Assembly (NCBI GenBank): GCA_964508365.1
Contig: CAZDTP010000018.1
Coordinates: 113-64,112 of the forward strand
Direction: 5' to 3'
From: an uncultured archaeon
GTDB lineage: Archaea; Asgardarchaeota; Lokiarchaeia; Sigyniarchaeales; SOKP01
DNA: 64,000 nt
The position numbers and the translations under genes were made by a program. This document shows, piece after piece, positions 57,089 to 61,946 of this stretch. The notes under the pieces were generated by a model, which saw nothing but the letters and a program-made list of their open reading frames with translations, did no database searches and had not been told where the DNA came from. Each line of letters starts with the position of its first letter. Positions within the stretch are counted from its first letter, which is position 1.

Positions 57089-58236
57089 GAAATCCAGCGA
57101 TTTTAGAATCTAGAGCACATACATTTTATGTGAAAAAAAAAGGAATCCCTAAAGGATGTCAACAATGTTTAAAGGGTGCCAAAGCAGTATTATTTCTTAA
57201 TGGAATCTGCCAGAATCCAAAACATTGTTGGTGGTATTGTCCGATTTCTGAAAAACGAAAAGGTAAGAAAGATACCTATATAAACGAGATTCAAATATCT
57301 TCTAAAGAGCAGATACTACATGAAATCAAAGCTATTAATGCGAAAGGCATGAGTATTACAGGTGGAGAGCCATTATTTGAACCCAACTTAAAAAAAACGC
57401 TAGAATATATCAAATTCATCAAAGAAAATAAAGGAAAAAAGTTCCATATTCACCTTTACACCAACGGTCTTAATTTTAACGAAGAAATTGCGGCAAAACT
57501 CGCTCGAGCAGGGTTAGACGAAATTAGATTCAACCCTGCAAAAGAAAATTGGAATGTGATTAAATACGCATTAAACAAGGGTATGTCCGTAGGAGCTGAA
57601 GTTCCTGTGATTCCAGATGTGGAATATATAGAAAATTTGAAAAAATTCATCTTTTATGTGAATAAAATAGGTGCAGATTTTATTAATTTGAATGAATTTG
57701 AATATACTTTGCCAAATAGCCAAAACCTTAAGGACCGAAATTTTAAGTTGGAAGCAGGTACAATAGCATCTGTAAAGAATAGTAAAGAATGTGCAATTAA
57801 ACTCATACATGATATCCTTCCATATGTTTCAATAAAAATTCATTTTTGTACGATTATAGCTAAGGATTATTGGCAATTGAGAGAAAGATATTTAAGACGT
57901 GCAAAAACTATTAAATTACCATACGAAGAAATCACGAGAGATGGTTTGCTATTATACGCTCAAATAGAAGGCGAGAAGAAGGACATTAAAGCGTTTTATA
58001 ATCTTTTATTAAATGAGCTAAAAATCCCTCAAAACTTCTTATCTTACGAAATAACTTATATTAAATTACCCATAAAGTTTGCTTTGAAAGAATTTTTTAT
58101 GGATTTACTAATTCAACATAATTTAAAAGGATATATAATAGAAATGATACCGTTTCGAGAAGAAATATATCAACAAATAACGGAAAAAACACCTATAAGG
58201 TTATTCAAAGAAGAGATGGGACTAAATGATTATTGA
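57085..58236 (+). CDS. Radical-SAM-like protein
   Basis: Cys cluster CQNPKHCWWYCP, SITGGEPL, TIM-barrel-like length. The Cys spacing is non-canonical (C-x5-C-x3-C). Confidence 0.55.
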   Translation: MRNPAILESRAHTFYVKKKGIPKGCQQCLKGAKAVLFLNGICQNPKHCWWYCPISEKRKGKKDTYINEIQISSKEQILHEIKAINAKGMSITGGEPLFEPNLKKTLEYIKFIKENKGKKFHIHLYTNGLNFNEEIAAKLARAGLDEIRFNPAKENWNVIKYALNKGMSVGAEVPVIPDVEYIENLKKFIFYVNKIGADFINLNEFEYTLPNSQNLKDRNFKLEAGTIASVKNSKECAIKLIHDILPYVSIKIHFCTIIAKDYWQLRERYLRRAKTIKLPYEEITRDGLLLYAQIEGEKKDIKAFYNLLLNELKIPQNFLSYEITYIKLPIKFALKEFFMDLLIQHNLKGYIIEMIPFREEIYQQITEKTPIRLFKEEMGLNDY

Positions 58237-58672
58237 TACAGTCACTCTTAAAGATTTAGATGAAATTTACAATTTAGAAAGACAATATTTCAAGAAAGAC
58301 TCATTTTCAAAAGAATTAATTTTTAATTTGATAAAAACGAACACATTTTTTTTTAAGCTTATCGATGACGAACTATCGAATAATATTATAGGGTTCATCA
58401 TTATTATTCAAGATCGAGAAGAAAGATTAAACTTGATTAACTTTTTAATTAGAAAGGGGGAAAGAAAAAGAGGTTATGGGAGTTCTCTTTTAAGATATAC
58501 TCTGAAAAAAGTAATAGCATTAGATAAGATAAAAACAATTATATTGAATGTGAACTCTAAAAATAAAGCTGCTATAAGCTTGTATCAAAAATTTAATTTT
58601 CAGATTGTCGAAAGAATAGAAAATTATTATCGGGACAAGCAAAGCGCTTACTTAATGATATTGAACGTTTAA
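58226..58672 (+). CDS. rimI: GNAT N-acetyltransferase (RimI/Ard1-like)
   Basis: R..G.G..LL acetyl-CoA motif (RKRGYGSSLL) and N..A..LY.K.GF. Overlaps the previous gene by 11 nt. Confidence 0.7.
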   Translation: MIIDTVTLKDLDEIYNLERQYFKKDSFSKELIFNLIKTNTFFFKLIDDELSNNIIGFIIIIQDREERLNLINFLIRKGERKRGYGSSLLRYTLKKVIALDKIKTIILNVNSKNKAAISLYQKFNFQIVERIENYYRDKQSAYLMILNV

Positions 58673-58782
58673 TCATTTTCTAAAAACCAAGACTTATAAA
58701 TAAATTCTATTATAAATTTTGTATAGAAAGCATTGATAATGTGTTCAAAAAAAGGAAACAAAAATAAAAGTATTGAGTGATT

Positions 58783-58938
58783 ATGACGCCCTTAGGTACC
58801 GAATTAAAAGATGAAATTAAAAAAGGTGTTACTCTCCAAAAGGTTGACGAGGAAGATATGAAAAAACGTGAAGAAGAGAAAAAGAAGCGAATGGAAGAAT
58901 TAGAAAAAGTTAAAGAAGCCTTAGGAGCAAAAGATTAA
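58783..58938 (+). CDS. 51-aa WH2 / beta-thymosin-like mini-protein (candidate actin-monomer binder)
   Basis: Own translation: MTPLGTELKDEIKKGVTLQKVDEEDMKKREEEKKKRMEELEKVKEALGAKD. Residues 7-20, LKDEIKKGVTLQKV, fit the WH2 pattern L-x3-I-x2-G-x2-L-[KRQ]-K-[VT]. Same strand as its neighbours. Below the ORF-track cut-off. Confidence 0.45.
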   Translation: MTPLGTELKDEIKKGVTLQKVDEEDMKKREEEKKKRMEELEKVKEALGAKD

Positions 58939-59085
58939 ATTTTATCTGTTTTTTGTATTTATTATTTTTTTTCTTTATTCTTAGTTTAACTCACAAATCC
59001 CCAAGCAAAATGCAATTTAAGTGTGTTAAACTTAATTGTTAGTGTTAATTATAAAAATTTAGGAATTTTGAGTTTGAAGTGCCTA

Positions 59086-60159
59086 ATGAAAATTCTGGAT
59101 ATTGATAAGAAGGAGGAAACCATTTCATTAAGAACCGAAGATTTAAACGATCTATGGACACTCTATAATATTATTGCTAAAAATGACCACGTAACGGCAA
59201 GAACAAACCGTAGAATAGTTTTAAAAGAAGGTTCTAAAGGAGAAAGAAAACAAATGAAATTGAAAATAAATGTCGATTCTATTTCATTCCACGAGTTTTC
59301 AAATCGGTTAAGAGTAAAAGGAACTATCTTAGAAGGACCAGAGGATTTTGTTTCGTATGGGACATATCACACAATTAATATAGAACTAGGACTAAAATTA
59401 ACAATTAAAAAACCTAAGTGGTTAAATAGTGAGATTAAACGCCTTAGCAAATCGCCTAGATTTCAAACTGATTTTGTCATGCTAATAATAGCGATCGAAA
59501 CAGGGTTAGCAACAATCGCTCTTATTACAAATTATAGCCATAATAGAATCGCTACTGTAAAAAAAAACATCCCAGGCAAAAGATACGAGCAATCCTATCG
59601 AAACAAAGCTTATGAAGAATTCTATAGTGATATTAGCAACATAATTAAAGAAAAAACAGACAGTATAAACTTAAAAATCATTATAATATGTGGCCCTGGG
59701 AGCACAAAGGATCACTTAACACAATATATTAAAGAAAAAGCCCAAATAACGAGGTTACCGAAAATCGTAAACATTCAAGCTAGCTCTGGAACTGAAAGTG
59801 CAATCCTGGAAACTCTTAAATCAAAAGAACTCAAACTTCTAAAGAAAAATGTTAAAATCTTCCATGAAACTGAGAAAATTGAGGAAATTTTTCAGTTGTT
59901 TAGCACCAATTCAGATTTAATTGCAATTGGATTCGATGAAATCTCGAAAGCTATTGAAAAAAGAGCTGTAAAGGAACTTTTTTGTGCAGATATTCTTATA
60001 AGAGGTGCATCAAAAAAACAGAAATTAAGAATAGAACAATTATTAAACGGTGTAGAATCTTTAGGTGGAGAAATTCATATTTTAAGTAGCGAACACCCAA
60101 CAGGGCAACAAATAATTGATTTGGGATCTATCGTTGCTATTTTAAGATTTAAAATTTAA
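59086..60159 (+). CDS. pelA: Pelota (Dom34 homolog), mRNA surveillance/ribosome rescue
   Basis: MKILDIDKKEETISLRTEDLNDLWTLYNII is a typical Pelota N-terminus, followed by eRF1-like central and C-terminal domains. Start set at ATG 59086 rather than the upstream GTG of the track. Confidence 0.85.
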   Translation: MKILDIDKKEETISLRTEDLNDLWTLYNIIAKNDHVTARTNRRIVLKEGSKGERKQMKLKINVDSISFHEFSNRLRVKGTILEGPEDFVSYGTYHTINIELGLKLTIKKPKWLNSEIKRLSKSPRFQTDFVMLIIAIETGLATIALITNYSHNRIATVKKNIPGKRYEQSYRNKAYEEFYSDISNIIKEKTDSINLKIIIICGPGSTKDHLTQYIKEKAQITRLPKIVNIQASSGTESAILETLKSKELKLLKKNVKIFHETEKIEEIFQLFSTNSDLIAIGFDEISKAIEKRAVKELFCADILIRGASKKQKLRIEQLLNGVESLGGEIHILSSEHPTGQQIIDLGSIVAILRFKI

Positions 60160-61313: not shown

Positions 61314-61946
61314 TTGATTATAATGAGCCCAATTATAACGCATGAAGATGAATTTGATTTAGCAAGTATGGAAAAAGAATTAGTGACCCAAATAAGGAAA
61401 CTAGCAAAATCTCAGAGTACTTTAATTGATTCTCAAAAAAAATACGCCGAAAATTTAAAAAAAACAACACTTACTCGAGAAATGTTAAACAGAACATTTA
61501 GAGACGTATTGAAACACATGCAGACTCTAGTACGAGAGAAACGATCAAATATTAAAGAGGAAGAAGTGAAAATATTTCAAGATATTATCCACAAAAACGA
61601 TGGATACATAGAAGTTAACAACAAATATATTGATTCGATTAAGGATCTCGCCGTAAAAAAAGACTATTTAGTCGAAAAAAAATATGAATTTGCTTCGGCA
61701 TTAAGCGAAGTAGCAAACAAAAGAAACATAGTAATCAAAAAAGCATTATCTGTTGAGAAAAAAAAAAACGATTTAATCGAAGGAGAAAAAATGAAAATTT
61801 TAGAGTCCGAATTGAACGATTCGCAAAGAGACTTTGATCGTGCTCGAGATATTTTAATGAAAAAATTAGACCAATTTTTACAGATTAAGAACGAAGTAGA
61901 TGAATTGTGGGTAAATTTGAAAAATAGCGTTGACAAAGCAAGCTGA
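61314..61946 (+). CDS. All-helical coiled-coil protein (about 210 aa), hypothetical
   Basis: Heptad-rich K/E sequence in three long helical segments. No enzymatic motif. Confidence 0.55.
   Translation: MIIMSPIITHEDEFDLASMEKELVTQIRKLAKSQSTLIDSQKKYAENLKKTTLTREMLNRTFRDVLKHMQTLVREKRSNIKEEEVKIFQDIIHKNDGYIEVNNKYIDSIKDLAVKKDYLVEKKYEFASALSEVANKRNIVIKKALSVEKKKNDLIEGEKMKILESELNDSQRDFDRARDILMKKLDQFLQIKNEVDELWVNLKNSVDKAS

Follow-up and report, generated by a model that had tools for sequence, protein, structure and literature searches.

WH2 domains bind actin in the cleft between its subdomains 1 and 3. To our knowledge, the binding of actin monomers is the only job known for the profilin domain in Asgard archaea, and rabbit actin binds both the profilins and the gelsolins of these organisms.

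The regulation of Lokiactin by Asgard archaea has been attributed mainly to profilins and gelsolins (bioRxiv 10.1101/2025.11.30.690169). Asgard two-domain gelsolins contain WH2-like four-residue motifs, namely LVDV, LKDV, LRRV, and LKHV (PMC9433394, PMC7444086, bioRxiv 10.1101/2025.11.30.690169), and crystal structures have shown the gelsolin motifs on actin (PMC9433394, PMC7444086). The module described below is mentioned in none of these three gelsolin papers. In the searched, mainly non-subscription literature, we found no mention in archaea of a free-standing or tandem WH2- or thymosin-like protein or of a profilin-WH2 fusion, in agreement with the original prediction that a free-standing mini-protein of this type is not part of the described Asgard toolkit.

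A 51-amino acid protein under purifying selection is encoded between GNAT and pelota genes

The window, i.e. the whole 64,000-nucleotide stretch of DNA analyzed here, contains a 51-amino acid ORF with an ATG start that lies between a rimI-like gene and pelota on the same strand (Table 1). Its translation is identical to the sequence that had been quoted when the ORF was first proposed, and its coordinates and neighbors were likewise confirmed. Despite an in-frame GTG located 6 nt 5' of the ATG, the ATG is the likely start because orthologs start with M-T/A/S-P. The WH2-like motif of the mini-protein comprises residues 7-21, ELKDEIKKGVTLQKV.

Two TTATAAAT boxes in the upstream spacer are possible archaeal TATA elements that may provide the mini-gene with its own promoter, and the oligo-T runs that follow its stop codon appear terminator-like for archaeal RNA polymerase. 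Because of these upstream boxes and downstream runs, the mini-gene looks like a putative transcription unit of its own. Elsewhere in the window, a K/E-rich ORF with a coiled-coil-like appearance has no Pfam match (Table 1).

Table 1. Positions of the features discussed in the text, in the window or in the locus named.
Feature	Sequence	Position	Strand	Remarks
Mini-protein CDS	window	58783..58938	+	stop TAA 58936-58938; 5.96 kDa, net charge -1, pI 5.5
WH2-like segment, residues 4-21	window	58792..58845	+	short amphipathic helix (L4, L8, I12), G15, then L18-Q-K-V21
Residues 22-48	window	58846..58926	+	acidic linker (DEED), then conserved charged helix MKKREEEKKKRMEELEKVKEALG
Two TTATAAAT boxes	window	58694-58701 and 58710-58717	+	in the 110-nt upstream spacer; read from sequence
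Oligo-T runs 3' of the stop	window	T4 58940-58943, T6 58949-58954, T8 58965-58972	+	read from sequence
GNAT (RimI-like) acetyltransferase, upstream neighbor	window	58226..58672	+	Pfam Acetyltransf_1, 50.9 bits
Pelota (ribosome rescue factor), downstream neighbor	window	59086..60159	+	Pfam eRF1_1, eRF1_2, eRF1_3
K/E-rich ORF	window	61314..61946	+	210 aa
~10-unit ortholog P0241	L021	2312..3748	-	also L067-L070, P0121, P0158
~10-unit ortholog P0242	L022	1697..3172	-
RHH domain plus unit	L028	1431..1787	-
RHH domain plus unit	L071	1384..1773	-
P0184 family member	L079	5560..6339
P0184 family member	L080	3711..4490
Profilin domain plus extension	L073	1306..1926	-	G000 contig C25
Profilin domain plus extension	L075	1270..1908	-	G000 contig C61
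Profilin-like domain plus TrmB domain	L029	211..1458	-	G000 contig C22; 415 aa
Actin gene (Lokiactin paralog)	L029	1495..2640	-	G000 contig C22

Since the ORF is short and is unannotated or "hypothetical" everywhere, it could be read as a chance frame in K/E-rich or A-rich intergenic DNA. Transcript data do not speak to this reading: in two metatranscriptome runs with a small share of the stretch, coverage was confined to the oligo-T tract and some portions of pelota, and its absence over the ORF is uninformative. However, when conservation was checked as the original prediction had suggested, a six-frame search of relatives found the frame intact in all 24 of 24 same-genus genomes, and divergence among 17 same-genus orthologs was biased toward synonymous sites, with a median pS of 0.62 far exceeding the pN of 0.11 (dN/dS ~0.17). 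A word-indexed search of 5.8 billion proteins further returned 219 homologous clusters of 48-51 amino acids with E-values down to 2e-19, all of them nameless or "hypothetical" and derived from Lokiarchaeota/Promethearchaeota metagenome bins, and the sequence is also homologous to units of larger proteins (see below). The chance-frame reading is effectively refuted by this conservation: the 51-amino acid ORF is a genuine, strongly constrained small protein under purifying selection.

The mini-protein is more conserved than the adjoining pelota and GNAT proteins, with identities among orthologs of 70-98%, 61-97%, and 44-94%, respectively. Across 43 family members, Gly15, Leu18, Arg36, and Lys42 are invariant, while conservation is 90% or higher at L8, I12, K13, K14, V16, K20, V21, R29, E30-K33, M37-L40, and A46-G48. 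Because such positions fall in both parts of the protein, the WH2-like N-terminal segment and the charged helix are each under constraint. The window ORF conforms to the consensus of the family (49-51 amino acids), M-x-P-x-D-K-E-L-K-x-E-I-K-K-G-V-T-L-Q-K-V-D-E-E-x-(M/L)-K-K-R-E-E-E-K-K-K-R-M-E-E-L-E-K-V-K-E-A-L-G.

The mini-protein family is specific to one order of Lokiarchaeia

With either profile, the mini-protein family was found in 38 of 40 sampled genomes of the taxonomic family to which the window belongs and in the three remaining families of the order, while both profiles failed to detect it in 158 sampled genomes of 25 further Asgard families. The mini-protein family is thus specific to one order of Lokiarchaeia and is not a general item of the Asgard toolkit. 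NCBI bin labels of Thorarchaeota, Hodarchaeota, and Hermodarchaeota sit on proteins that are at least 71% identical to the ORF; such labels conflict with the single-order distribution and are probably wrong or unreliable.

Radical-SAM, GNAT, mini-protein, and pelota genes follow one another in this order throughout the genus. A second family, where pelota is just 40-45% identical, shows the same arrangement, and family f4 has lost it. GNAT and pelota are divergently oriented neighbors with no small ORF between them in several distant Asgard families (L099, L103, L105, L109, and L111), and a search of 23 genomes of other Asgard families revealed no positional ortholog upstream of pelota. The mini-gene therefore looks like an order-specific insertion into an old GNAT-pelota adjacency, and since this adjacency is older than the mini-gene, the kept synteny says little about its function.

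This neighborhood nonetheless raises the alternative that the mini-protein assists translation or ribosome rescue as a small accessory protein, acting with the neighboring GNAT and pelota. The gene order kept in the genus and the second family is compatible with such a role, as is the very high conservation, which is often seen in ribosome-bound proteins. We consider this alternative improbable, however, given that the adjacency predates the gene in other Asgard families, that family f4 lacks the synteny, and that an A/T-rich spacer and an oligo-T tail of its own flank the mini-gene. Moreover, with a pI of 5.5 the protein is near-neutral rather than basic like small RNA-binding proteins, it occurs in one order only, unlike core translation factors, and its module is used in arrays and profilin fusions. 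TMA7 (PF09072), a candidate that we considered for the C-terminal half, likewise gave no score, having no match in the genome at E ≤ 10.

The N-terminal segment resembles WH2 domains in register

The original prediction had identified a WH2 signature in the ORF and had named a blank search with the Pfam WH2 and thymosin models as counting against it. Neither model scores the ORF: Pfam WH2 gave no match on the ORF at E ≤ 10 in hmmscan and none when all six frames of the genome were scanned, so that the ORF does not reach the gathering threshold of PF02205 (23.1 bits), and Pfam Thymosin gave no match on the ORF in hmmscan or the genome scan, its sole match in the genome lying elsewhere (E 0.76). 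Among the genomes of relatives, the lone Pfam WH2 match in G032 and one of the four in G038 correspond to the repeat protein described below, at sub-threshold scores (E 0.4-0.7, 12.8-13.6 bits). NCBIfam models returned nothing on the ORF, and a Pfam DUF3006 match (E 0.12), whose 13 bits fall short of the 32.3-bit cut-off, was dismissed as noise.

In contrast with the curated models, profiles built from the family itself did point to WH2. When the family profile A1 was compared with 177,635 distinct PDB sequences, rank 1 was the N-WASP WH2 x3 construct 3m3n_W (E 4.8e-6), a match that leans on the engineered triple repeat, with three stretches of ~10 bits each. The natural N-WASP WH2 pair 2vcp_D followed at rank 4 (E 0.008) and the MIM WH2 2d1k_C at rank 8 (E 0.15), with the remaining matches being de novo TIM barrels. 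The top PDB match of profile A6, which was built from repeat units only, was again 3m3n_W (E 0.069). Single-domain WH2 scores of the family profile are only ~10 bits.

A search of 1.8 billion proteins with profile A3 retrieved P0181 (E 3e-4) and P0185 (E 8e-4) via residues 3-23 only, and both are WH2 proteins according to Pfam (45.8 and 80.8 bits, respectively). When profiles were aligned with the WH2 units of P0181/P0185 using hhalign, A3 gave a probability of 94% (P 1.5e-7, score 32.5, a score matched by 1 of 300 column shuffles), although this comparison is partly circular because the reference proteins were found by the family's own profile. The corresponding alignment with A6 gave a probability of 77% (P 1.9e-5) and a score of 22.3, which was reached by 0 of 300 column shuffles (null 6.7 ± 1.7). 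Because column shuffles rarely if ever reach these scores, the WH2 likeness is probably not a composition effect. By language-model features, the nearest named clusters were two Thymosin clusters (0.88 and 0.87), which we take as a lead only.

At the residue level, L8, I12, G15, L18, K20, and V21 align with the corresponding L, I, G, L, K, and V residues in the WH2 domains of N-WASP and MIM, and the segment also falls in register with the Pfam-verified WH2 units. Where WH2 domains have the first Leu of "LL", the mini-protein carries Glu; Gln takes the place of the first Lys of LKKV, and the LKKV position is variable in general (LQKV, LEKP, LSPV, and LDKV). Taken together, these comparisons suggest that the WH2 likeness of the N-terminus exceeds chance to a modest level: of the predicted signature, conservation in register and non-randomness (PDB ranks and shuffles) held up, while recognition by the Pfam WH2 and Thymosin models did not. 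Also at odds with the prediction, the best-conserved part of the module includes a 25-residue charged helix that is absent in WH2.

The strongest non-family match of the mini-protein profile was P0156, a Ki-67-like FHA/PP1-binding/SAP protein, and therefore such motifs also exist outside actin biology. P0156 is an eukaryote-type protein of 762 amino acids with ~14 tandem "TPLRNEIKAGxxLRxV" units that are sub-threshold with Pfam WH2.

These observations bear on the main alternative, in which the module serves as a helical interaction or spacer element specific to the lineage (an ER/K-type charged single helix plus a short docking helix) without an actin role, and its WH2-like N-terminus is convergent or fortuitous. 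We regard this as quite possible, though less likely than not. The silence of the curated WH2 and Thymosin models on the ORF fits it, as do the Ki-67-like protein with its similar repeated motif as the best non-family profile match and a charged helix (R29-L47) that is as conserved as the motif. It accounts less readily for the strong constraint on the motif part itself, in which G15 and L18 are invariant, or for the finding that two separately built profiles put WH2 first in the PDB while shuffles do not.

The mini-protein is one copy of a module found in tandem arrays and fusions

Judged by sequence, the ORF is one copy of a ~45-amino acid, largely unstructured module that is found in larger proteins. 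The module comprises an amphipathic N-terminal helix and a conserved, charged helix, with the extended G-x-x-L-x-K-V stretch lying between them. In other families of the order, proteins of ~480-497 amino acids carry ~10 tandem units with a period of 41-46 residues, such as LLEEISQAPQLKKVDEDDLKKYQKEKQ... and LMESINRGISLTKIKAEDLEEYEKRKRERIDEIK (Table 1). Since the repeat-unit profile A6, which was built without the mini-protein, retrieves the window ORF at E 1.3e-9, the homology of the mini-protein and the repeat units is secure. Across all repeat units, the counterpart of Arg36 is the sole near-invariant residue beside the motif Leu. The central part of the ~10-unit proteins is degenerate, and they have no Pfam annotation.

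An AF2 model of a 10-unit protein consists of 37-residue helices parted by non-helical, low-confidence stretches of 7-10 residues that match G..L.KV. No globular repeat fold was seen in this model, which has a pTM of 0.23 and was based on an alignment of 8 sequences only. The genes surrounding the 10-unit gene encode a thermosome protein, a HAD hydrolase, and a methyltransferase, with nothing cytoskeletal among them.

An exhaustive HMM scan of 1.8 billion representatives revealed fused architectures. A word-index search for longer, fused forms had found none, and this blank reflects a sensitivity limit because the exhaustive scan did reveal them; a language-model feature search with a single repeat unit gave no usable match. 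The unit lies behind an N-terminal domain in proteins of ~250-390 amino acids (P0184, P0169, and P0180), behind ribbon-helix-helix (RHH) domains (P0175, P0182, L028, and L071), and behind leucine-rich repeats (P0170 and P0178), the leucine-rich repeat forms having RHH or Zn-ribbon domains. The RHH and leucine-rich repeat fusions may be candidate actin-sensing regulators or, alternatively, a sign that the unit serves interactions of a more general kind.

An interaction or spacer element without an actin role would also be compatible with several of these features, namely the joining of the unit to the unrelated RHH, leucine-rich repeat, and Zn-ribbon domains, the near-invariance of R36 across units, and the non-cytoskeletal context of the 10-unit gene. 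Against it stands the recurrence of profilin as the fusion partner in a large subfamily.

The module is fused to a true profilin

Behind Asgard profilin domains, the unit is present in 1-4 copies, and the profilin-fusion family comprises 57 clusters. The N-terminal domain of P0184 matches the crystallized Odin, Thor, and Loki profilins in sequence (E 9.6e-10 for 5zza_P). An AF2 model of P0184, built on a 29-sequence alignment, had the OdinProfilin/actin structure 5zza_P as its best Foldseek match (TM 0.89, rmsd 1.6 Å), followed by Loki and then eukaryotic profilins. Thus, the fusion partner of the module is a true profilin. While the profilin domain was modeled with a pLDDT of ~80, the unit (pLDDT 37-62) packed against nothing and consisted of a helix (150-164), the loop GGKLEKPDE, and a second helix (174-205).

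Members of the P0184 family (alignment A4; L079 and L080) are ~255 amino acids long and combine the profilin domain and one unit with a conserved C-terminal domain of ~50 amino acids that carries the motif YIYDDFxLL. On one metagenome contig, a profilin-unit fusion gene lies directly downstream of two Arf/Ras/Roc GTPase genes, with a 1153-amino acid ORF after it.

In the genome from which the window comes, the profilin-domain proteins have C-terminal extensions other than the unit. Two of them (L073 and L075) combine a profilin domain with a shared DPxLKxEVxxFLxWIK... extension. A third protein (L029) has an Asgard-profilin-like N-terminal domain and a TrmB winged-helix DNA-binding domain, and its gene lies directly downstream of an actin gene encoding a Lokiactin paralog; this protein could be a candidate actin-linked transcription regulator. 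The genome has seven actin-family matches (G000 contigs C22, C60, C90, C23, C1, C15, and C103; loci L029-L035), among them two close Lokiactin paralogs that are 83% identical; one match is cut by a contig end. The C22-type actin is present in some genomes of the genus only.

Discussion

We infer from sequence and architecture that the module is a WH2/β-thymosin-type binder of monomeric actin, with a probability of roughly one half. This reading is favored because the in-register pattern is accompanied by reciprocal, if weak, profile links to WH2, because the module lacks an autonomous fold and occurs in tandem arrays, and, above all, because it is recurrently fused to profilin.

[quoted passage not shown] In its free-standing form, the mini-protein might then buffer or sequester actin monomers or pass them on. 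That the mini-protein binds actin, where on actin it would do so, and that it sequesters monomers are points that we infer rather than observe.

A broader version, which we consider possible but less likely than not as a whole, is that a WH2/β-thymosin-type G-actin module is deployed in a eukaryote-like manner: as a monomer buffer when free-standing, as a nucleator or filament ruler in the 10-unit proteins, behind profilin, and behind RHH domains for actin-sensing transcription control. The transcription control proposed for the RHH-unit fusions would be analogous to the actin-monomer sensing of RPEL/MRTF. The data do not support descent of the module from an ancestral WH2 domain in common with eukaryotes, and convergence or a lineage-specific origin is favored because the distribution is narrow.

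If the module does bind actin monomers, it would represent a third class of archaeal actin regulator beside profilin and gelsolin, one that includes the seemingly abundant 6-kDa mini-protein and its 10-unit and profilin-fused relatives, and the most widespread actin-monomer-binding motif of eukaryotes would be present, or have been separately invented, in archaea. Even if actin is not the partner, the mini-protein is an unannotated protein that ranks among the most conserved of its lineage, above pelota.

Compared with the motifs of the Asgard gelsolins, the module occurs in the same organisms and offers the same kind of L-x-x-V contact element. The gelsolin motifs, however, are linkers between gelsolin domains, whereas the mini-protein is encoded by a separate gene and has its own helix and no gelsolin domain. 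The Asgard profilins (Loki, Odin, Thor, and Heimdall; 5zza, 5zzb, 5yed, and 7pbh) are related to the module as its fusion partner, but no profilin domain is present in the mini-protein.

The module resembles WH2 domains (PF02205), such as those of N-WASP, WAVE, MIM, and WIP, in its amphipathic helix with hydrophobic residues four apart, followed by Gly and L-x-K-V at the same spacing. Like them, it adopts no independent fold in the models and is used singly, in arrays, and beside an actin-regulator domain. It differs from WH2 domains in that the curated model does not score the ORF, in the replacement of the first helix Leu by Glu and in having LQKV rather than LKKV/T, in the obligatory, conserved 25-residue charged helix after the motif, and in the restriction of the family to one archaeal order. 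Canonical WH2 domains have no counterpart of this charged helix, the position of which resembles that of the C-terminal helix of β-thymosins.

The β-thymosins (PF01290; thymosin β4, Ciboulot, actobindin, and tetrathymosin) are matched by a free-standing, acidic peptide of ~45-50 residues and by repeat versions of the module with a ~45-amino acid period. Thymosin β4 is laid out as an N-terminal helix, an LKKT-like stretch, a linker, and a C-terminal helix, as in the mini-protein, and a helix/extended/helix layout was seen in the AF2 models of the units homologous to it. The module differs from β-thymosins in its much longer, ER/K-type C-terminal helix, and the comparison is one of layout, with no Thymosin-model match on the ORF. 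Finally, the tandem-WH2 nucleators Spire, Cordon-bleu, and VopL/VopF, together with nebulin-type rulers, are comparable to the ~10-unit arrays of family f2, although the nucleators have short linkers where the f2 arrays have long, charged 37-residue helices as spacers.
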